Assembly: GCA_029100965.1 (NCBI GenBank)
Contig: JAQXQC010000055.1
Coordinates: 1 to 56,793 of the forward strand
Source: Bacilli bacterium
GTDB taxonomy: Bacteria; Bacillota_I; Bacilli_A; RF39; UBA660
Direction: 5' to 3'
DNA length: 56,793 nt
The first letter of the stretch is position 1. Every line of letters starts with the position of its first letter. The translations under genes were made by a program, and so were the position numbers. Positions 7,330-38,037 of the stretch are shown one piece after another. The notes beneath the pieces were generated by a model. The model had not been told where the DNA came from. It did no database searches and saw nothing but the letters and a program-made list of their open reading frames with translations.

Positions 7330-8632
7330 AAAAAAATTTTTAAGTCCTTATTTTCTTCTTTTTGTCTTTTTTTCTTTTCTTTTTTTTATTCATTGCTTTA
7401 CTAAATTTGGGGGAGATGATACTTCTTATTTTTCTTTGATGTTAGATACTTATTCTTTGTTTTCATTTTTAAAAATGAGGTATTTATCTTGGTCTAGTCG
7501 TATTATTATTGAGGGATTTTTAGTTGTTTTAAGTAGGTATCTATATTTATGGAGGTTTCTAGATAGTTTTATTTATACTTTATTGATTTATGCTAGTAAT
7601 CGTTTATTTTTTAAGAAAATATCTTTTAAGAATTTGCTTTTGACAGGTCTTGTTTTGTTATTATATCCTTTTTTGTTTGTAGGAGAAACGGGTTATTGTG
7701 CAACTTCTTTAAATTATTTATGGCCTCTTGCTTTGATGATGGTAGGATTTTTACCATATAGATTTTATTTATATCATGAAAGAATTCCTAGATATTTGTA
7801 TCCTATTAGTGTTTTAAGTATTCTTTATGCAGTTAATCATGAGCAAGCTGTTTGTATAGTATTTGCTGTATCAGTATTTTTTCTTATTTATGCTTTTATT
7901 CAAAGGAGTTCTAAAAGGTATCCAATTCTTTTAGTTTTACTTAGTACAATAAGTTTAGTTTTTATTTTGACTTGTCCGGGTAATTCTAATAGAATGGGAA
8001 TAGAACTTGCTCATTATTATCCAGATTATATCAATGCTAATATTATGGATAAAATTTATTTAGGAATGGTTTCTAGTACATCTATTTTATTAGATTGTAC
8101 ATGGATAATTTATTTTTTTGGTTTTATTTTATTTCTAAGTATTATTAGAAATGTAAAAAGAAGAGTTCCTAAAATTATTGCAATGATTTATTTTGGTATG
8201 TTAACTTTTATCTTTTTATTAAAAGTATATTGTGAAATTAAGAATTATCAGTATGGATTATTTAATTACTTTACTCAAGTAGGACATGTTTTTGTGTTTA
8301 GTAGGACAAATATTTGTTGGTTATTACTTATTGGTTTCTTATTTTGTACGATGATTTATTTACTTTATCAATTAGATAAAAAGAAATGTATTATTCCTAT
8401 TTTTATTCTTTTGTTAGGTTGTGGTAGTAGACTTATGATGGGATTTTCTCCTACTGTTTTTGCGTCTGGGAAAAGAACGGTAATTTTTCTATTTTTTTCT
8501 TTTTTGTTTTTAAGTATTCTTTTGATAAAGAAGTATTTTTCTTCATTTAAGAAAATTGATAAGAGATGTTTAATGTTTTTGCTTTTTGCTTTTTTTCTTT
8601 TAAATTTAGGAATATTCTTTTTTAGAATATGA
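7316..8632 (+). CDS. Polytopic membrane protein, possible GT-C-type glycosyltransferase or polymerase
   Basis: At least 10 predicted TM helices, and it sits inside the glycosylation cluster. The function is inferred from context only. Confidence 0.45.
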   Translation: MKKNRKKFLSPYFLLFVFFSFLFFIHCFTKFGGDDTSYFSLMLDTYSLFSFLKMRYLSWSSRIIIEGFLVVLSRYLYLWRFLDSFIYTLLIYASNRLFFKKISFKNLLLTGLVLLLYPFLFVGETGYCATSLNYLWPLALMMVGFLPYRFYLYHERIPRYLYPISVLSILYAVNHEQAVCIVFAVSVFFLIYAFIQRSSKRYPILLVLLSTISLVFILTCPGNSNRMGIELAHYYPDYINANIMDKIYLGMVSSTSILLDCTWIIYFFGFILFLSIIRNVKRRVPKIIAMIYFGMLTFIFLLKVYCEIKNYQYGLFNYFTQVGHVFVFSRTNICWLLLIGFLFCTMIYLLYQLDKKKCIIPIFILLLGCGSRLMMGFSPTVFASGKRTVIFLFFSFLFLSILLIKKYFSSFKKIDKRCLMFLLFAFFLLNLGIFFFRI

Positions 8633-8639
8633 TATTTAG

Positions 8640-10415
8640 TTGGGTGGTAATATGGAAAAAATATTTTATATAATATCTGTTATTTTTCTTATTTTCTCTT
8701 ACTTATTGTTTTTTAAATCAAAGAAGAAGTTAAGTGTTATAAGAGAATTTATTTATTCTATTTGTTTATTTTATTGTTATAATGTTTTAGTTGTTCATGT
8801 TGTTTATTTATTCAAACAAACAGGAACTTTCTTTTTATATGGTAGTATTAATATTATTATTTCTATTATTTTAGGTATAATAACTTTAATAACAAAGAGA
8901 AAACAACAATATTATTTTAAAAAAAGAGAATTTCTTTTCTTTGGTTTATTTTTTGTATTATTTATGTTACTTGGTTATTTAAGGTTTCATGGGGGGAGAT
9001 TAATTCATTATGAATCTGTAGATGCTTCTATTCATTATAGATATGCTCTTCATTTTTCAGAAACACTTTCTACTTTGACAAAAGAAAATAGTAAAGATTT
9101 GGTATATGGTAATTTTGAAAGAGGAATGTCTATTTCTTATGTAAATGGAGGCTTTTTAATTAGAATTCTTTCTTTTATTAAATCTTATCGTGTATTTTTA
9201 CTTCATGATACGATTAGTTTTGCTATTACGGGATTAATCTTTTTAAGTACTTTATTTCAACTGTTTAAGAAAAGAAATTACTTTTATTATGCTTCTCTTA
9301 TGTTTCTTTATAGTTTTTCTTTTTTATTGAATAGTTATAGCTTTGGTTTTAGTTATTTAACTTTAGGAATGATGGTGGTCAATTTATTATTTCTAACTGT
9401 ACTTTCTTATGAAAAAGAATGGGAAGAAAATGTTTGGTTTAAAATACTGATTTTGTTTATTCTTTCGTTTTCAGTCTTCTTTTCTTATTATTTATTTGTT
9501 CCTTGTATTTATCTTGCTTTAGGTATTTATTATATAAAACTTTATCAGGATAAAGAGATAAGTTTTAAACAAATGAGTTTCTATGGGATTTTTACTTTAA
9601 TTCTTCCTTTCTTTATTGGTTTTTTCTATTTTGTTTTTCCAACATTCTTTAAAGTAAAAGGGGGAGTTGCAACGGCTATTGCATTAGATGGATATATTTA
9701 TAATAATAAGACGCCTTCTTACTTTTTTGCTTTCTTTTTCTTTTATTTAGTGTATTTTGAAAGAAAGTTTCAAAAGGAAAATACTTATTTGGTTCTTAAC
9801 TTTTATTTTATTTCTTTTTATATTGTTCTCTTTTTTATTTTATTTGTTTTTCATTTATCAGGAGAATATTATTTTCATAAATTATTTTATTTATATTCTA
9901 TTTTTGTTATTTTATATTTTGGAATAAAGTTAGAAAATAAGAAGAAATATGTCTATCTTTTCACTTTTCTTACTTTAGGTAGTATGCTTTTGATTAGGGT
10001 GATGGATGATAATAAATTGACTAATTTATTATCTAAATTAAATGTATATAATTGGAATAGTTACAGTTTTAATCAAAATAGAACTTTAATTGATGAAGAT
10101 GAACTTCTTTTGATTGAAGAGAGTACTAAATATAAAGATGTTTGTAGTTATCATCATGAGTTTATTAATGCTGGAAAGAAACTTAGAAATTATTTGTTTT
10201 ATGCGATTACTAATGAAATTCCTTTAGCTGGCTATCGTAAAGATAATAAGGATGGATTAAATCAAGAAAATATTTCTTTTCATTGGTGGAGAAATTTAGA
10301 AGATTATCCTTGTATTGTTTATTTTTATGATGATAAAGTGATAGATAGTAGTATTTATCAATATCAAATTTTGTATCAAAATGAGGGCGGCGCTATTTTA
10401 AAGAAGGTTAATTAA
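8640..10415 (+). CDS. Polytopic membrane protein with a C-terminal soluble domain, possible GT-C-type glycosyltransferase
   Basis: Many TM helices followed by a soluble tail of about 150 aa. The function is inferred from context only. An alternative start is the ATG at 8652. Confidence 0.4.
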   Translation: MGGNMEKIFYIISVIFLIFSYLLFFKSKKKLSVIREFIYSICLFYCYNVLVVHVVYLFKQTGTFFLYGSINIIISIILGIITLITKRKQQYYFKKREFLFFGLFFVLFMLLGYLRFHGGRLIHYESVDASIHYRYALHFSETLSTLTKENSKDLVYGNFERGMSISYVNGGFLIRILSFIKSYRVFLLHDTISFAITGLIFLSTLFQLFKKRNYFYYASLMFLYSFSFLLNSYSFGFSYLTLGMMVVNLLFLTVLSYEKEWEENVWFKILILFILSFSVFFSYYLFVPCIYLALGIYYIKLYQDKEISFKQMSFYGIFTLILPFFIGFFYFVFPTFFKVKGGVATAIALDGYIYNNKTPSYFFAFFFFYLVYFERKFQKENTYLVLNFYFISFYIVLFFILFVFHLSGEYYFHKLFYLYSIFVILYFGIKLENKKKYVYLFTFLTLGSMLLIRVMDDNKLTNLLSKLNVYNWNSYSFNQNRTLIDEDELLLIEESTKYKDVCSYHHEFINAGKKLRNYLFYAITNEIPLAGYRKDNKDGLNQENISFHWWRNLEDYPCIVYFYDDKVIDSSIYQYQILYQNEGGAILKKVN

Positions 10416-11362: not shown

Positions 11363-12505
11363 ATGAAAAATATTTTTATTTTAGGCTCACGTGGTTATCA
11401 AGCAAAGTATGGTGGTTGGGAGACTTTTGTTACCAATTTAGTGGATCATTATCATGATAAAAATACAACTATTTATGTGGGAGAATTAACTGATAAAAAG
11501 GAAGAAGATAAAACATTAAGAAAGATAAATGATCATTTATTTATTTATTCTTTTTATGTTAATACGAGTGGTAGTGCTAAGATGTTTTTTTATACAATAA
11601 AGTCTTATTTAAGTACTTTAAATTATATTAAAAAAAATCAATTGTTTGATTCCTATGTTTATATTCTTGGATTGAAGTTAGGTCCTTTATTAGCGTTCCA
11701 TCAACATTTTAGAAAGAAATATCGAATTAAGATTTATGTTAATCCAGATGGTTTAGAGCATCTAAGAAGTAAATGGAATAGACTTATTCAGTGGTGTTTT
11801 TTATTATCAGAATGGTCGATGATTAGGCATGCTGACTTAGTAGTTTGTGATGGACTTGGAATTGAAAGATATATTCAAAAGAAATATAAAAAGGCAAAAA
11901 CTACTTATATTGCTTATGGGACTAATCTTTATGATTTTTCTAAGATTGATGAGGAGAAGATATTAAAAGAGTATCATTTGAAGAAGGATGATTATCTTTT
12001 GATGGTAGGTAGATGTGTTCCTGAAAATAATTATGAATTAGTTATTAAAGATTTTATGAAGAGTAAGATAAAGAAAAAATTAGTCATTATTACAAATTTG
12101 AGTAGTAGTCATTATTATTTGGAATTAGTAGAGAAAACTTCTTTAGAGAAAGATAAGAGAATTATTTTTATTGATGGGGTATATGATCAAGTAAAGCTGG
12201 CTACGATTCGAAAGAATGCTTATTTATCTATTCATGGACATTCTGTTGGGGGAACTAATCCTAGTTTAATAGAAGCTTTGTCTTTAACTGATTTAAATTT
12301 ATTATATGATGTTTGTTTTAATCATGATATTGGGTTAGATACTGCTTTATATTTTAAAGAAGAAGGAAGTTTAAAAAAGTTATTAGATAATACTAAATTA
12401 TTAGATCAAAAAAGAGAAGAGCTTGGACCTAAAGCTAAGAAAAGAATACAAGAAAACTTTACTTGGGATAAGATTGTAGAAGAATATAAGGATATTATGA
12501 AATAG
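11363..12505 (+). CDS. GT4-family glycosyltransferase with a DUF1972-type N-terminus (rhamnosyltransferase-like, WchF/Cps2T type)
   Basis: The N-terminus ILGSRGYQAKYGGWETFV is characteristic of DUF1972. The C-terminus is GT1/GT4-like (GHSVGGTNPSLIEAL). Confidence 0.7.
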   Translation: MKNIFILGSRGYQAKYGGWETFVTNLVDHYHDKNTTIYVGELTDKKEEDKTLRKINDHLFIYSFYVNTSGSAKMFFYTIKSYLSTLNYIKKNQLFDSYVYILGLKLGPLLAFHQHFRKKYRIKIYVNPDGLEHLRSKWNRLIQWCFLLSEWSMIRHADLVVCDGLGIERYIQKKYKKAKTTYIAYGTNLYDFSKIDEEKILKEYHLKKDDYLLMVGRCVPENNYELVIKDFMKSKIKKKLVIITNLSSSHYYLELVEKTSLEKDKRIIFIDGVYDQVKLATIRKNAYLSIHGHSVGGTNPSLIEALSLTDLNLLYDVCFNHDIGLDTALYFKEEGSLKKLLDNTKLLDQKREELGPKAKKRIQENFTWDKIVEEYKDIMK

Positions 12506-26516: not shown

Positions 26517-27503
26517 ATGGTAAAAAAAATTTATAATTTATTATTTAAAAGAAAAAATTATAAATTTATTATTGGAATATTTCTAGGAATATTTTTTTCT
26601 ATAGTAGGAGTATATGCTGCTAGTAAATATACTTCTAAGAGTGTATATTATAATAATGAAAATAGTAGTTTATCTAGTGATGATGTACAGGGAGCTATTG
26701 ATGAGTTATCAGAGAAAGCAAAGAATCTTTCTAGTAGTGGATGTCCATCTGGTTATGCTTGTTTAGAGAAAAAAACTACTTTAGCGTTAGGAGATTATGT
26801 TAAGATGACACCAACTAAATCTTCTTATACAACAGATAAATCTAAAACAGGATATACAAGTACACAAACCATTAAACCTCAAGAATTAAATTTATGGCGA
26901 GTGATTAAAATTAATAGTGATGGAACAGTAGAGATGATTAGTGAACATGTATCTAGTACAGCAATATACTTTGGAGGAAAAACAGGGTACTTAAATTTAG
27001 TAGGCTATTTAAATGTACTTGCTAGTCAGTATGAAAATAGTACTTACACAAAAGGTTCTAGACATTTTGGTTATAATGGACAAACAGAATATATTACTGA
27101 TACAACAAAATTTGTTAATCCTGCACCATGGACTAGTTCAACTGGAAGTAGTACAGTAGAAAGGCAAGGAGGAGGAGATACTTTATATACTACAGACTAT
27201 AATTTAGTTTATACAGTGTTAGGAACTAGAGTGGCGACCAAACCAGGAAGCGCCGCTGGTTCATATTATTGGATGGCCTCACGTTACTATGGCTATTCGT
27301 CATCTACTAGCTATTACTGGCGCGGTCGTAGCGTGAGCACCTCGGGGTCGAATAGCAACTACAGCTTGTATCGCTATTACAGTTCAAGTTTCAACGCGGA
27401 CTACAATAGTAATTCCTTTCGCCCAATAGTGGTTCTGAAGTCAGGCCTCAAATACTATGGAGTCGGGACAGAGGATTATCCAATGGAAATATCAGTAAGT
27501 TAG
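26517..27503 (+). CDS. DGR variable protein 1: N-terminally anchored or secreted protein with a C-terminal variable region (probable C-type-lectin-like fold)
   Basis: An N-terminal hydrophobic anchor (FIIGIFLGIFFSIVGVYAA). The C-terminal 47 codons (VR1) align with the TR and differ from it at adenines. It is a paralogue of the 29571 and 36649 genes. Confidence 0.85.
   Translation: MVKKIYNLLFKRKNYKFIIGIFLGIFFSIVGVYAASKYTSKSVYYNNENSSLSSDDVQGAIDELSEKAKNLSSSGCPSGYACLEKKTTLALGDYVKMTPTKSSYTTDKSKTGYTSTQTIKPQELNLWRVIKINSDGTVEMISEHVSSTAIYFGGKTGYLNLVGYLNVLASQYENSTYTKGSRHFGYNGQTEYITDTTKFVNPAPWTSSTGSSTVERQGGGDTLYTTDYNLVYTVLGTRVATKPGSAAGSYYWMASRYYGYSSSTSYYWRGRSVSTSGSNSNYSLYRYYSSSFNADYNSNSFRPIVVLKSGLKYYGVGTEDYPMEISVS
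27285..27425 (+). repeat. DGR variable repeat VR1
   Basis: A 141-nt ungapped match to TR 28352-28492. I count 20 mismatches, 17 of them at TR adenines, and all 15 mismatches from codon 6 onward are at adenines. Confidence 0.9.
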
Positions 27504-27514
27504 GAAGTGTAGAA

Positions 27515-27547
27515 CCTCGGAGGACAGCCTAAGGGTGTTCACCGAGG
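27515..27547 (+). other. Conserved GC-rich hairpin just after the target-1 stop codon (copy 1 of 2)
   Basis: The fold is cctcgg-a-ggaca-g-cc-taa-gg-g-tgttc-a-ccgagg. A near-identical copy follows target 2. Confidence 0.6.
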
Positions 27548-27575: not shown

Positions 27576-27998
27576 GTGGCAGTCATTCATATGGTGAATA
27601 ATTTGAAAGAATTATTTCCTGATTATGTTTTATTATTAAAAATTGGTACTTTTTATGAGTGTTATTGTGATGATGCTAATATTGTTTCTTATTTATTTTC
27701 TTACAAAAGAAAAACTCTATCTAGTGGGGATAAGGTATGTGGATTTCCTCTTGTTTCTTATCATAAGGTAATCTCTAATTTAGAGAATAGAAATATTAAT
27801 TATATTTCTATTGATAAAACACATAATTATGAAGAAATAGATAAGGTTAATTATAAGAAAAAGAATCAATATCATGTGATTTTGGATAAAGCAAATTATT
27901 ATATCAATAATTTAGAGAGAATTGATAAGATTAAAAATTTTCTTTTAAAAGATAATTCTAAAATAGATGAGATAGAGAGATTGTTATATGAAAGATAA
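27576..27998 (+). CDS. Standalone MutS-domain-I-like protein (DGR accessory ORF, MSL-type)
   Basis: LKELFPDYVLLLKIGTFYECYCDDANIVS...CGFPLVSYHKVISNLENRNINYISID parallels the E. coli MutS N-terminus ([21 protein letters not shown]...[16 protein letters not shown]). This includes the F-x-E mismatch-contact motif (FYE, nt 27651-27659). The start is GTG with an AAGAAGG RBS. Confidence 0.7.
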   Translation: MAVIHMVNNLKELFPDYVLLLKIGTFYECYCDDANIVSYLFSYKRKTLSSGDKVCGFPLVSYHKVISNLENRNINYISIDKTHNYEEIDKVNYKKKNQYHVILDKANYYINNLERIDKIKNFLLKDNSKIDEIERLLYER

Positions 27999-28332
27999 AT
28001 TTTATGTTACTCGTTTAATTAAAGAATTAATTCATAGTTTTCATCAATATTTAACCAATTTTCCTCATAAGGAAATTGAGATAAAAAGAGAGATTATGTC
28101 TACTTCTTATCAAATGTTAAAAATTGCTTATGAAGCAAATACAACTTTTGATTTGAAAAAAAGAGTAGATATTCAAGATAAGATAATTTCTTATATTAAA
28201 TATTTGGATTATTTGGTTAATGTTTGCTATGATAAGCAAATTATTAATTCAAAGAGATATTTGAAATTTGGTGAGAATTTAGATTATTTATTAAAATATG
28301 TAATTGGATGGCGAAAGTCATCTAGGGCTTAG
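27988..28332 (+). CDS. avd: DGR accessory variability determinant (Avd, four-helix-bundle protein)
   Basis: A 114-aa, helical, basic protein located immediately upstream of the TR. The FP-HKE..IKREI...YEAN...KR....I...I..L..L pattern is typical of the Avd / 23S-IVS four-helix-bundle family. Confidence 0.75.
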   Translation: MKDKFYVTRLIKELIHSFHQYLTNFPHKEIEIKREIMSTSYQMLKIAYEANTTFDLKKRVDIQDKIISYIKYLDYLVNVCYDKQIINSKRYLKFGENLDYLLKYVIGWRKSSRA

Positions 28333-28351: not shown

Positions 28352-28492
28352 AATTATGACCATTCTTCATCTACTAACTATAACTGGAACGGTCGTAACG
28401 TGAACACCTCGGGGACGAATAGCAACAACAACTTGTATAACTATAACAGTTCAAGTTTCAACACGAACAACAATAGTAATTCCTTTCGCCCA
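28352..28492 (+). repeat. DGR template repeat (TR)
   Basis: A non-coding segment between avd and the RT. Read in the VR frame it gives NYDHSSSTNYNWNGRNVNTSGTNSNNNLYNYNSSSFNTNNNSNSFRP, with 17 AAY codons out of 47. It matches VR1, VR2 and VR3. Confidence 0.9.
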
Positions 28493-28627
28493 GTAACTTC
28501 TTCAAACTGTGGTAATATAAGTATTCTTATATTAGAGATAATGAAGAAATAGACTAAGTCCAATAGATTTATTCTATAAACAATAATTTAAAATATATCT
28601 GTTAGTAATTTAGGTGAAAGGGGATAT

Positions 28628-29574
28628 ATGAAAAGGAAAAATAATTTATATTCAAATGTATATAAATTTGATCATATAGAGAAGTGTTTTGATGAGATTT
28701 GTAGAAATACAAAGAATAAAAATAAAGTAAGTCAATTTAAAGAATTTAAGGCAATATATATTAGCCGAGTTTATCATGAATTAAAAAATAAAACTTATCA
28801 AGTAGGAAGTTTTCATGTATTTTATCTTTATGATCTAAAAAGAGAAGGATAGTTAGTCAAAATATGTATGATAAGTTAGTGAATCATTTGGTTAGTAGGT
28901 ATATTTTATATGATGCTTTAATTCCTTGTTTGATTGATTCTAATTGTGCATCAAGACCAAATAAGGGAGTAAGTTATGCTTTAAAGTTATATTATCAATA
29001 TCGAAGAGTATTGGATAAAAAATATTCTTATTATTATATTTTAAAATGTGATATTAAGTCTTATTTTGCTAGTATTGATATTGAAATATTAAAGAATAAA
29101 TTAAGAAAAAAGATTAAAGATAAAGATGCTTTAACTATTATTTATCAGATATTAGATAGTGATACTACTCTTAGTATAGGATTTATGACTAGTCAAATAT
29201 TAGGAATATTTTATTTAAATGATTTAGATCATTATATAAAAGAAGAATTAAAAATAAAATATTATGTTAGATATCAAGATGATTTTTTATTATTACATTG
29301 GGATAAACAATATTTAAAATATTGTTTAGATAAGATAAAAGAGTTTTTAAAAAGAGGGAAATTAGAATTGAATGAGAAGACTAGAATTTATAAAAATACA
29401 AATAATATTATTTTTCTTGGGAGAAATAAATATAATAGAAGTTCTAAATATAGAAAACAATTTAGAAAATTAAAACATAAGAAGTATTTATATGATGTAG
29501 GAAAAATTCAATTAAACAGTTATTTAGCTAGTTATATTAATTATAGAAATATTAATGGAGGTTTGAGAAAATGA
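28628..29574 (+). CDS. DGR-type reverse transcriptase, interrupted by a -1 frameshift at an A5 run (28837-28841)
   Basis: RT motifs are present: KCDIKSYFASID, the IGFMTSQ DGR-specific (I/L/V)GxxxSQ signature, YVRYQDDFLLL (YxDD), and FLG. ORFs 28628-28852 and 28864-29574 join as ...FYLYDLK/KRRIVSQNMYDK if one A is added. Confidence 0.85.
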
Positions 29575-30521
29575 AAAAAAGTAAGGGTTATAATTATAAA
29601 TTATTAATGGGAGTGATTTTAGGAATACTTTTATCTGTGGTTGGTGTAAGGGCTGTTAGTTATCTTGGAAGTGGTTCAGAATTAGTTTACGATAATAGTA
29701 GTAGTGGACTTTCCTCTGTTAATGTTCAAAATGCTTTAGATGAAGTTTATAGTAAAATTTGTCCTGATAACTATGTATGTTTCAAGAAGAAAAGTACTTT
29801 AGCATTAGGAGATTATGTTCAGATGACACCAACTAAATCTTCTTATACAACAGATACTTCTAAAACAGGATATACAAGTACGCAAACTATTAATCCTCAA
29901 GAATTAAATCTATGGAGGGTGATTAAAATTAATGATGATGGAACGGTAGAGATGATTAGTGAGCATGTCTCTAGTACAGCGGTATATTTTCAAGGACAAA
30001 CAGGATATCAAAATTTAGTAGGCTATTTAAATGTTCTTGCTAGTCAGTATGAGAATAGTACTTATACGAAAGGTTCTAGATATTTTGGTTATAATGGACA
30101 AACAGAATATATTACGGATACATCAAAATTTGTTAATCCTGCACCATGGACTAGTTCAACCGGAAGTAGTACAGTAGAAAGTCAAGGAGGAGGAGATACT
30201 TTATATGCAACAGATTATAATTTAGTTAATACAGTGTTAGCGACTAAAGTGGCAACTAAACCTAACAGTGCATCTGGTTCAGATTATTGGATGGCTTCTC
30301 GTGACTATTATTATTCTTCATCTACTAGCTATGGCTGGTACGGTCGTAGTGTGGACGCCTCGGGGGCGAATAACATCATCTATTTGTATCGCTATAGCAG
30401 TTCAAGTTTCAGCACGGACAACGATAGTAATTCCCTTCGCCCAATAGTGGTTCTGAAGTCAGGACTCAAATACTATGGAGTTGGGACAGAAGACTATCCA
30501 ATGGAAATATCAGTAAGTTAG
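29571..30521 (+). CDS. DGR variable protein 2 (paralogue of target 1)
   Basis: Its ATG overlaps the RT stop codon (ATGA). It has an N-terminal anchor, a scaffold that by eye is about 90% nt-identical to target 1, and a C-terminal VR2. Confidence 0.85.
   Translation: MKKSKGYNYKLLMGVILGILLSVVGVRAVSYLGSGSELVYDNSSSGLSSVNVQNALDEVYSKICPDNYVCFKKKSTLALGDYVQMTPTKSSYTTDTSKTGYTSTQTINPQELNLWRVIKINDDGTVEMISEHVSSTAVYFQGQTGYQNLVGYLNVLASQYENSTYTKGSRYFGYNGQTEYITDTSKFVNPAPWTSSTGSSTVESQGGGDTLYATDYNLVNTVLATKVATKPNSASGSDYWMASRDYYYSSSTSYGWYGRSVDASGANNIIYLYRYSSSSFSTDNDSNSLRPIVVLKSGLKYYGVGTEDYPMEISVS
30303..30443 (+). repeat. DGR variable repeat VR2
   Basis: A 141-nt ungapped match to the TR. I count 26 mismatches, 18 of them at TR adenines. 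Confidence 0.85.
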
Positions 30522-30531
30522 GAAGTGGAGA

Positions 30532-30580
30532 ACCTCGGAGGACAGCCTAAGGGTGATCACCCGAGGTGGCTATCTTTTTT
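30532..30580 (+). terminator. Conserved GC-rich hairpin (copy 2) plus T-run: probable terminator of the DGR operon
   Basis: acctcgg...ccgaggt stem followed by ggctatctttttt. Confidence 0.6.
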
Positions 30581-36648: not shown

Positions 36649-38037
36649 ATGGACTCTAAAAAAAGATTAATTATTACTAGTGTTATATCTATTATTCTTG
36701 TATCTATTTTATTTATTGGGAGTACTTATTCCATTTTTACTTCTACTGATGTTGATCAAGAATCTAATGTATATCAAACGGGAAATTTGTCAATTCAGTT
36801 TGAAAATACAAATAATGTTGCTTTAGAAATTACTAAGCCAATGTCGGATCAAAAAGCAGTTTCTTTGACTCCATATCATCTTACGGTTACCAATAATGGT
36901 ACAGTTGCGTATAAATTTAATATTGTACTTAATCCAACAACAGCAACAGATGAAATTAATCATCAATATATTATGACTAAAGTAGGACAATTGGATAGTA
37001 AAAAATTTAGTGATTGTACAAATAATATTATTAAAGAAGGAGTTATTTTGTTGCCTAAAACAAGTGTTGATATTGATGTTCGTGTTTGGTTATCTGATAC
37101 TGTTCAAAATACAGAGGTTAATAAGAGTTTTAGTGCAAAATTATCTATAGATGGAGTTGGGGCTTATAGTAAGCATACAGAGGTGGATAATAGTGCGTTA
37201 GCATCTAATGATAAATTAGCTAGTCGATTTAGTTATGATAATTCTAAGTCTAATTTTGATTGTTCTGATGTACAGTGTGCGATTGATACTTTAGATAAAG
37301 CATTAGGAGGTAGTGATTTATTTTTAGGGGCATATGTTTCCATGACACCTAAAAAATCTTCTTATACAACAGATACTTCTAAAACAGGATATACGAGTAG
37401 TCAAACAATTAATCCTCAAGAATTAAATCTATGGAGGGTAATTAAAATTAATAGTGATGGAACGGTAGAGATGATTAGTGAGCATGTATCTAGTACAGAT
37501 GTATACTTTCGAGGAAAAACAGGGTACTTAAATTTAGTAGGATATTTAAATGTACTTGCTAGTCAATACGAGAATAGTACTTATACAAAAGGGTCTAGAC
37601 ATTTTGGGTATAATGGACAAACAGAATATATTACCGATACTTCCAAATTTACTTCTAGTGCTCCATGGACTTGTGGTACTGGAGGAAGTTGTAATCCAGT
37701 AGAAAGTCAAGGAGGAGGAGATTGGTTATATACAACAGATTATAATTTAGTTAAAGCGACTGAAGTGGTAACTAAACCTAACAGTGCATCTGGTTCATCT
37801 TATTGGATGGCTTCTCGTGACTATAGCTATTCTTCATCTACTAGCTATGGCTGGTACGGTCATAGTGTGGACGCCTCGGGGGCGAATAACCTCAACCATT
37901 TGTATGACTATGTCGGTTCAAGTTTCAGCACGAGCAGCAATAGTAAGTCCCTTCGCCCAATAGTGACTTTGAAGTCTGGACTTAAATATACAGGATCTGG
38001 AACTGCTGATGATCCATTTAAACCATCTACAAAGTAG
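36649..38037 (+). CDS. DGR variable protein 3: SipW-type signal peptide plus a TasA/camelysin-like N-terminal module, fused to the shared scaffold and VR3
   Basis: The N-terminus ...LFIGSTYSIFTSTDVDQESNVYQTGNLSIQF resembles TasA/CalY-class signal peptides and their mature N-termini. The C-terminal half is paralogous to targets 1 and 2 and ends in VR3. Confidence 0.8.
   Translation: MDSKKRLIITSVISIILVSILFIGSTYSIFTSTDVDQESNVYQTGNLSIQFENTNNVALEITKPMSDQKAVSLTPYHLTVTNNGTVAYKFNIVLNPTTATDEINHQYIMTKVGQLDSKKFSDCTNNIIKEGVILLPKTSVDIDVRVWLSDTVQNTEVNKSFSAKLSIDGVGAYSKHTEVDNSALASNDKLASRFSYDNSKSNFDCSDVQCAIDTLDKALGGSDLFLGAYVSMTPKKSSYTTDTSKTGYTSSQTINPQELNLWRVIKINSDGTVEMISEHVSSTDVYFRGKTGYLNLVGYLNVLASQYENSTYTKGSRHFGYNGQTEYITDTSKFTSSAPWTCGTGGSCNPVESQGGGDWLYTTDYNLVKATEVVTKPNSASGSSYWMASRDYSYSSSTSYGWYGHSVDASGANNLNHLYDYVGSSFSTSSNSKSLRPIVTLKSGLKYTGSGTADDPFKPSTK
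37819..37959 (+). repeat. DGR variable repeat VR3 (remote from the cassette)
   Basis: A 141-nt ungapped match to the TR. I count about 29 mismatches, about 20 of them at TR adenines. Confidence 0.85.

Follow-up and report, generated by a model that had tools for sequence, protein, structure and literature searches.

Template allele turnover, paralogue gene conversion and decay as the probable origin of variable-repeat differences in a diversity-generating retroelement of a gut Bacilli bacterium

Introduction

The stretch of DNA analysed here, referred to as the window, comprises all 56,793 nucleotides of contig JAQXQC010000055.1, and belongs to the chromosome of an uncultured gut Bacilli bacterium of low GC content (27.5%). 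Between 26.5 and 38 kb, it contains a chromosomal diversity-generating retroelement (DGR) with one template repeat (TR) and three variable repeats (VR1, VR2 and VR3), each of which lies in its own target gene. VR2 and VR3 agree over their 5' halves, diverge over their 3' halves, and share several differences from the resident TR at positions other than adenines. An earlier note, made from the sequence of the window alone, had attributed this pattern to a template unlike the present one and to partial homing anchored at the 3' end. Comparison with relatives indicates that the pattern is probably the joint outcome of turnover among TR alleles, gene conversion between the paralogous targets, and decay of the DGR.

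Organization of the DGR locus

All features of the locus lie on the plus strand. The first target gene, T1 (26517..27503), encodes a 328-aa protein with an N-terminal membrane anchor and contains VR1 (27285-27425). It is followed by a MutS-like (MSL) accessory gene (27576..27998), whose match to Pfam MutS_I (E = 3.2e-9) scores 37.4 bits, above the cut-off of 20.6, and by the accessory gene avd (27988..28332), whose 114-aa product matches Pfam bAvd (E = 2.3e-6) and NCBIfam DivGenRetAVD (E = 8.8e-7), both under the curated cut-offs. The avd gene is positioned directly 5' of the TR (28352..28492), an arrangement kept in all relatives, and the TR holds 51 adenines, mostly in AAC and AAT codons. 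The reverse transcriptase (RT) gene (28628..29574) is frameshifted and is divided into open reading frames (ORFs) at 28628-28852 and 28864-29574. Its 3' ORF matches RVT_1 (E = 2.4e-13), the RT motifs IGFMTSQ and YQDD are present, and the intact orthologue in relatives is 315 aa long, with the same avd-TR-RT order. The second target gene, T2 (29571..30521; 316 aa), contains VR2 (30303-30443), and the cassette MSL-avd-TR-RT is thereby placed between T1 and T2. The third, T3 (36649..38037; 462 aa), contains VR3 (37819-37959) and lies 7.5 kb downstream of the rest of the locus. T1, T2 and T3 are paralogues, with approximately 700 nt in common at roughly 85-90% identity.

Several properties identify the element. 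The differences of VR1-VR3 from the TR (codons 5-46) fall overwhelmingly on TR adenines; the adjacent RT appears, from its RVT_1 match, its motifs and its intact orthologues, to be of the DGR type, with a gene that is frameshifted here; and from the range of DGR accessory genes (Avd, HRDC, MSL or CH1) the locus possesses an MSL gene whose MutS_I match exceeds the Pfam cut-off. DGRs with a combined MSL and Avd accessory set form a described class (PMC5758913; bioRxiv 10.1101/2024.11.15.621889), and the element is an MSL/Avd DGR with several paralogous targets, a kind of system that is already known. The nearest RT among the GTDB species representatives is 78% identical, the species of the window being without a representative there. 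In two RT homologues of approximately 60% identity (P0194 and P0201), the protein is 447-448 aa long and carries a fused MutS_I domain, so that some relatives have the MSL function built into the RT itself.

The 141-nt repeat is present in exactly four copies within the window (0 expected by chance). The earlier note had offered a second TR as one possible source of the divergent bases in VR2 and VR3; searches of the window with the core motif and with degenerate patterns (up to three mismatches) returned only the four known copies, and the window thus holds no such template.

Differences between the variable repeats and the resident template

Positions in the repeat are written cNpM, for repeat codon N and codon position M, and the prefix W_ marks the window's own copies. 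On realignment, the codon registration and coordinates of the earlier note, along with every site that it listed, proved correct. Over codons 4-14 and 16-24, VR2 and VR3 show no difference. At the mutated TR adenines of codons 5-24 they are alike at 8 of 8 sites, which bears out the proposed common ancestry of their 5' halves; VR1/VR2 and VR1/VR3 are each alike at 2 of 10. Across codons 25-44, VR2 and VR3 have the same base at 2 of 14 mutated TR adenines. They differ 12 times within codons 25-41, and all 12 differences lie on TR adenines, a placement with a probability of 1.7e-5 if sites are drawn at random and of 2.5e-3 if only codon positions 1-2 are allowed.

Four mismatches with the TR that do not involve adenines are shared by VR2 and VR3: c16p3 C>T (30350 in VR2, 37866 in VR3), c24p2 G>A, c27p3 C>T (30383 and 37899), and c45p1 T>C. 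None of the four is found in VR1, which has the TR base at each, and C at c1p3 and T at c4p1 are found in all three VRs. Realignment also brought out features that had gone unlisted. Two non-adenine changes, at c15p2 (G>A) and c43p3 (T>G), are private to VR3; c3p1 differs from the TR in both VR2 and VR3, and c3p3 in VR2; and the identity between VR2 and VR3 runs on upstream of the VR. Over codons 5-46, the adenine-site and non-adenine differences from the resident TR number 15 and 1 for VR1, 17 and 4 for VR2, and 18 and 6 for VR3.

A gene-conversion tract accounts for the shared 5' half

The continuation of the identity upstream of the VR was analysed by comparing W_T3 in sliding blocks with its own orthologues (L036 and L035) and with T2. 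This comparison delimits a T2-like tract inside T3 (37755..37890). Within the tract, per 24-50 aligned columns, W_T3 has 2-4 differences from T2 and 8-17 from the T3 orthologues; in the blocks upstream of it and downstream of VR3 in which T2 and T3 are distinct, W_T3 has 0-5 differences from at least one of its own orthologues and 11-28 from T2. The tract's start, at about 37755, precedes VR3 codon 1 (37819) by at least 62 nt, and its end lies near codon 24 (37890). Since the TR has no homology to the region between the tract start and VR3 codon 1, the tract begins outside TR homology and DGR retrohoming cannot have made it. As judged from these sequences, the block comparison shows the shared 5' half of VR2 and VR3 to be a product of paralogue gene conversion from T2 to T3. 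In the first layer of the proposed history, a T2-type tract of approximately 135 nt would have been copied into T3 in this manner, ending near codon 24.

The earlier note had instead read the shared 5' half as the remnant of partial homing. In its strict form, that explanation assumes one duplicated VR that was rewritten only on its 3' side by 3'-anchored homing, with all four shared non-adenine sites taken from a single older TR (AAT at codon 16, AAC at codon 24, AAT at codon 27 and CTT at codon 45). Homing of this kind would be expected to leave an unchanged 5' block within the TR-homologous VR. The observed block instead extends at least 62 nt past the TR homology and has displaced T3-orthologous sequence, and the remnant interpretation has to be given up.

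Conversion between the paralogues is seen elsewhere in the species. On the reverse strand of contig L032 (around 7968-8400), T2 contains a clean stretch of T1 type, approximately 120 nt long and ending at VR codon 7/8, which is apparently a second clean paralogue conversion, from T1 to T2. Furthermore, W_VR1 and L035_VR3 have a 3' VR block in common, including three mutated adenine sites, and differ in their 5' parts. Breakpoints inside VRs therefore arise by recombination among paralogues, which does not call for 3'-anchored homing, and the VR2/VR3 junction at codon 24/25 is by itself no proof that partial homing took place. The tract in W_T3 is not an exact copy of W_T2: the two have about 8 differences, and in places the tract is nearer to L035_T2, which argues against simple mis-threading within one genome.

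Two other arrangements were noted among the relatives. On L037 (3904-6514), a T3-type gene with a T1-type VR is joined directly to T2, and this junction is either that of a tandem duplication or an assembly chimera. On L049, which belongs to a related species, the T1 and T2 orthologues have VRs (8655-8795 and 11679-11819) that are 100% identical over 141 nt, which indicates either recent paralogue conversion or collapse of the repeat in assembly.

The 3' halves carry the signature of adenine mutagenesis

Apart from the private VR3 change at c43p3, the 3' halves of VR2 and VR3 show differences at TR adenines alone. This adenine pattern is clear, and in the second layer of the proposed history the 3' halves would be products of DGR adenine mutagenesis. 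The mechanism that brought them together with the shared 5' half may have been one of two: either the older 3' half of T3 was retained, or 3'-anchored retrohoming subsequently rewrote part of one copy. Such retrohoming has a precedent in the DGR carried by Bordetella phage BPP-1, in which 3' integration is fixed in the initiation of mutagenic homing (IMH) element, and 5' integration needs at least 8 bp of homology and can use internal sites (PMC3240598). The earlier account of the 3' halves is therefore upheld in the adenine signature of the differences, and 3'-anchored partial homing is a plausible step, albeit one that the data do not require.

Both this signature and the BPP-1 precedent also speak for the strict form of the earlier explanation, as does a pair of orthologues. 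Over codons 6-36, W_VR2 and L035_VR2 differ at c15 and c26 alone, and in c37-43 they have six adenine-site differences; like VR2 and VR3, they differ mainly at the 3' end, and the pair mildly supports partial 3'-anchored homing. In a tract rewritten by homing, the non-adenine markers should be those of the template. The C at c45p1 fits all TRs except the resident one, whereas the T at c27p3 fits none.

VR2 and VR3 match template alleles other than the resident one

TR alleles were collected from 23 conspecific contigs, which were found through homologues of T2, RT and Avd and have a TR at least 92% identical to that of the window; they represent about 10 alleles. An exact-pattern scan of metagenomes yielded one true relative (L032) and five chance matches, and a viral scan yielded one chance match. 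As a candidate for an alternative template, the second DGR (L011) of the metagenome-assembled genome (MAG) that also contains L014 was rejected: its RT is 54% identical, and BLAST of the TR and VRs gave no match.

At c45p1, the resident TR has T (28484), while C is present in 21 of 21 other conspecific TR contigs, in the outgroup TRs L014, L049, L052 and the L063 group, and in VR2 and VR3. The resident T, which is found in a single VR, VR1 (27417), is thus private and derived. At c24p2, the species is polymorphic for G and A; the resident TR has G, at least six sampled alleles (including TR-B and L083-L088) have A, and the A of VR2 and VR3 equals this segregating allele. At c4p1, the resident C is confined to one allele clade, and the T of VR2 and VR3 is that of about half of the alleles and of all outgroups. 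The effective 5' boundary of information transfer, which the earlier note had placed at codon 5-6, rests on c4p1 and consequently falls away, this site being a derived change in one TR allele clade. Segregating sites in the species further include c3p1 (G/T; resident G, VR2 and VR3 T or A) and c19p1 (A/G; resident A, VR2 and VR3 G), in addition to c4p1 and c24p2.

Among the sampled alleles, the resident TR is the best fit to VR1, and the common allele TR-B is the best fit to VR2 and VR3. Over codons 2-46, non-adenine mismatches with the resident TR and with TR-B number 2 and 3 for VR1, 7 and 4 for VR2, and 8 and 5 for VR3, respectively. TR-B is identical in five samples (L045, L055, L056, L057 and L058); four of its carriers have a complete 315-aa RT ORF, and in L058 the RT is unbroken to the contig end. 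The allele comparison demonstrates what appears to be a difference of template at c4p1, c24p2 and c45p1. That the writing template was unlike today's TR was likewise proposed from the window alone; the proposal stands for these sites and lacks support at c16p3 and c27p3, where no sampled conspecific TR has T. In the third layer of the proposed history, the non-adenine mismatches would be present mainly because the resident TR allele was not the last writer of VR2 and VR3.

These alleles bear on a further alternative, according to which the mismatches are plain drift, that is, point mutations that arose in the VRs after the DGR had stopped rewriting T2 and T3, and that came to be shared through the conversion tract. 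The frameshifted RT agrees with this possibility, as does the low GC content of the genome, c16p3, c27p3 and c15p2 all being GC>AT transitions. Drift of this kind would not, however, lead VR2 and VR3 to the bases that other TR alleles and the outgroups possess at c24p2, c45p1 and c4p1, with the resident TR as the derived sequence; the change of T to C at c45p1 runs opposite to the AT bias; and c27p3 lies outside the conversion tract.

The element is at three stages of decay within one species

In the RT gene of the window, one C of a CC pair between 28835 and 28836 has been lost (GATCCTAAAAAG > GATCTAAAAAG), and the frame is broken at codon 71 or 72, ahead of all catalytic motifs, a lesion that the earlier note had not recorded. 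A slip in the A5 run was considered as the cause and rejected, as the relatives show that it is the C of the CC pair that is missing. The same deletion is present in L028, which is identical in sequence, and in L078 and L080, which come from two other sequencing runs; the change must therefore be inherited rather than an error of sequencing. Of the other contigs examined, 15 retain both C residues, and the three other related-species loci have no break at this point. Because the frameshift precedes the catalytic motifs, the three VRs of the window are most likely frozen, as far as the reading frame can tell.

In L035, L038, L042 and L046, the whole MSL-avd-TR-RT block is deleted. Stubs of about 50 nt of the MSL gene and about 26 nt of the RT gene are left between T1 and T2 in these cassette-less strains, as at the junctions in L035 (2715-3010) and L046 (9700-10010). 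The T2 protein of the cassette-less lineage (P0002), which is 94% identical to the window's T2, is identical in 12 contigs from at least 10 samples, which implies that the VR of that lineage is frozen. In L014 (9700-11000), from a related species, the RT is split into two ORFs, the TR has lost some adenines, and the VRs have many non-adenine differences; this syntenic DGR also seems to have decayed. Between strains, orthologous VRs differ mostly at adenine sites, showing that the element was active in the past. By the evidence of these contigs, one species contains the DGR in three apparent states: with an intact cassette, with a frameshifted RT, and with the cassette deleted.

Two wobble positions and the weighing of the alternatives

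Template turnover leaves c16p3 and c27p3 to be accounted for. T at c27p3 is absent from the outgroup TRs as well as from the conspecific ones, and at codon 16 the related-species TR L049 has AAT. Comparable changes occur in TRs at other codons, AAC having flipped to AAT at c3, c18 and c37 in some conspecific alleles, and AAT being present at c11 and c13 in related-species TRs. Among 12 distinct VR alleles, a wobble C>T change is found at c16 in 5 and at c27 in 6, and at none of 12 other NNC codons. Such a pattern differs from uniform AT-biased drift and from random RT error alike. Either the two positions would be hot spots of site-specific spontaneous transition, or they would carry the imprint of a TR allele with AAT that is unsampled or extinct. 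A spontaneous change at c16p3 is seen directly, to judge by L035_VR1 and L040_VR1, from cassette-less and thus RT-less strains, which differ solely in C or T at this position, in the CpG context AAC GTG. We lean toward a hot spot at c16, and for c27 we prefer neither explanation.

The behaviour of c27 is a point of agreement with the strict form of the earlier explanation. T at c27p3 occurs with four codons (TAT, CAT, AAT and AGT), and in all three paralogues, as a template with AAT would yield, and TR alleles with AAC at codon 24 and with CTT at codon 45 do exist. Yet T at c16p3 or c27p3 is found in 0 of the roughly 10 conspecific TR alleles, and C at c16 is combined with T at c27 in L055_VR2, L036_VR3 and L035_VR1, alleles that 3'-end replacement cannot yield. 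Together with the extent of the conversion tract, these observations make the strict form unlikely.

For plain drift, the difference between the RT-less strains at c16p3 is a point in favour. The restriction of wobble C>T changes to 2 of 14 equivalent sites, and hence their lack of uniformity, is a point against it, and when taken with the allele data we regard drift as a very unlikely source of the pattern.

The last alternative is a non-canonical step of the DGR itself, either misincorporation by the RT, or a change of C to U in the RNA of the TR, at specific cytosines, or else patchy repair, perhaps aided by MSL, of the heteroduplex between cDNA and VR. The two positions share the context AAC KTG (AAC GTG and AAC TTG) and are the sole wobble sites hit, and a MutS domain I-like protein is encoded in the cassette. 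In 23% of DGRs, substitutions outside the A-to-N class have been reported, and their possible causes were suggested to be errors of the RT or the integration step (PMC5758913). Conversely, heteroduplex repair by MutS in Bacteroides DGRs is all-or-nothing in its behaviour (bioRxiv 10.1101/2024.11.15.621889), and c16p3 changes even in RT-less strains. For c16p3 and c27p3 themselves, a site-specific non-adenine error mode of the DGR, or a discontinuous, MSL-assisted resolution of the heteroduplex that spares VR markers, is very improbable in our estimation; as an account of the overall VR2/VR3 pattern, a non-canonical step is to be considered remote.

The combination of turnover among TR alleles, gene conversion between paralogues and decay of the DGR is thus the probable explanation of the VR2/VR3 pattern, and several observations weigh against it. 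T at c16p3 or c27p3 is in none of the about 10 conspecific TR alleles, and all four combinations of C and T at c16 and c27 occur among the VR alleles, which is a poor fit to a single succession from an old to a new TR with purely 3'-anchored replacement. The comparison data are nearly all short-read metagenome contigs, in which paralogue mosaics can be assembly artefacts, and the window itself is apparently one assembled contig.

A conflict in the order of events also counts against this combined explanation. The T at c45p1 is common to the resident TR and VR1, and yet the frameshift is common to L078 and L080, whose TR has C; c15p3 likewise conflicts with a simple tree. As c45p1 is only 8 nt from the end of the TR/VR homology, retrohoming is a likelier route for its transfer than homologous recombination. 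The simplest way out is recombination between c45p1 and the frameshift site, which are 352 nt apart. Alternatively, parallel mutation, RT-independent conversion or residual RT expression may account for the order. If VR1 did gain its T after an older frameshift, either residual RT expression or RT-independent transfer from TR to VR would be implied.

Target proteins, repeat ends and neighbouring features

In T1, T2 and T3 alike, the VR ends 26 codons before the stop. The target proteins matched no Pfam or NCBIfam family, sequence and profile searches of the PDB with the target protein gave no match, and the AlphaFold model of T2 is poor, with a mean predicted local distance difference test (pLDDT) score of 46.5, too low for assignment of a fold, such as the C-type lectin or Ig fold of DGR variable proteins. 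At the N-terminus of T3 (36649-36800), a SipW-dependent-type signal peptide and the camelysin N-terminal region are matched weakly (E about 0.01-0.03), and T3 may be secreted by another route than T1 and T2.

The identity of TR and VR extends through CGCCCA, after which they part (GTAACTTC vs ATAGTGGT), about 7 of the next 17 bases being alike. No long GC-only element is present at the TR and VR ends. Nor is there a significant hairpin or cruciform of the BPP-1 type close 3' of the VRs, the 54-nt segments directly 3' of them folding no better than shuffled sequences (z = +0.96, -0.51 and +0.56). A conserved GC-rich stem-loop does lie approximately 90 nt downstream of VR1 and VR2, with none after T3. 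On the plus strand, it is found past the T1 stop codon at 27515..27547 (DNA fold -10.9 kcal/mol, z = -3.5) and after T2 at about 30532-30567 (-9.9 kcal/mol, z = -2.2), and it may serve as a terminator or as a distal target element of the DGR. It is still present in the cassette-less strains. The TR-RT spacer contains, directly 3' of the TR, a stable AT-rich hairpin (28513-28534; z = -3.6), which may be part of the TR RNA structure; an Rfam search of the window gave no match.

The neighbours of the DGR are housekeeping genes, among them CinA, NAD kinase, a Mur ligase and a dGTPase-type HD protein. The same synteny is seen again in contigs from human-gut metagenomes, as well as in MAGs that are labelled uncultured Bacilli.

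Relation to known DGRs and implications

The DGR of BPP-1 (avd-TR-brt, with target mtd) resembles that of the window in its adenine-specific TR-to-VR differences, in the placement of an avd-like gene directly 5' and the RT 3' of the TR, and in the location of the VR at the C-terminal end of the target, where TR and VR part right after a short GC-rich end (here CGCCCA). The 3'-fixed and 5'-variable cDNA integration of BPP-1 would also give 3'-biased rewriting (PMC3240598). Unlike the phage-borne system, the DGR of the window is chromosomal, has three paralogous targets, of which one lies 8 kb from the RT, and possesses an additional MSL gene. It has neither an IMH of the (GC)14 type nor a significant hairpin directly 3' of the VRs, and in the strain of the window its RT is a pseudogene.

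Like the MSL DGRs of Legionella and of Bacteroides (Bfr/Bth/Bun), the element combines a small MutS domain I-like gene with avd (PMC5758913; bioRxiv 10.1101/2024.11.15.621889). It differs from them in its host, a low-GC gut Bacilli lineage, in target proteins that match no Pfam or NCBIfam family, and in the fusion of MutS_I to the RT in some relatives (approximately 60% RT identity). Several targets per TR are also a feature of multi-target chromosomal DGRs, such as that of Treponema denticola.

Surveys usually take non-adenine mismatches between TR and VR for RT infidelity or noise. As in the class of mismatches outside A-to-N (Wu et al. 2018), the counts at this locus vary from target to target (VR1 1, VR2 4, VR3 6). 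Here, the population data instead assign several of these mismatches to TR turnover and gene conversion, and not to RT infidelity.

The locus leaves the accepted DGR mechanism unaltered, and its history is one of ordinary DGR micro-evolution. Within that history, the VRs serve as fossils of earlier TR alleles, and blocks of VR sequence shift between targets through paralogue gene conversion. The presence of three stages of decay in a single gut species, finally, provides a context in which calls of DGR activity in metagenomes can be read.

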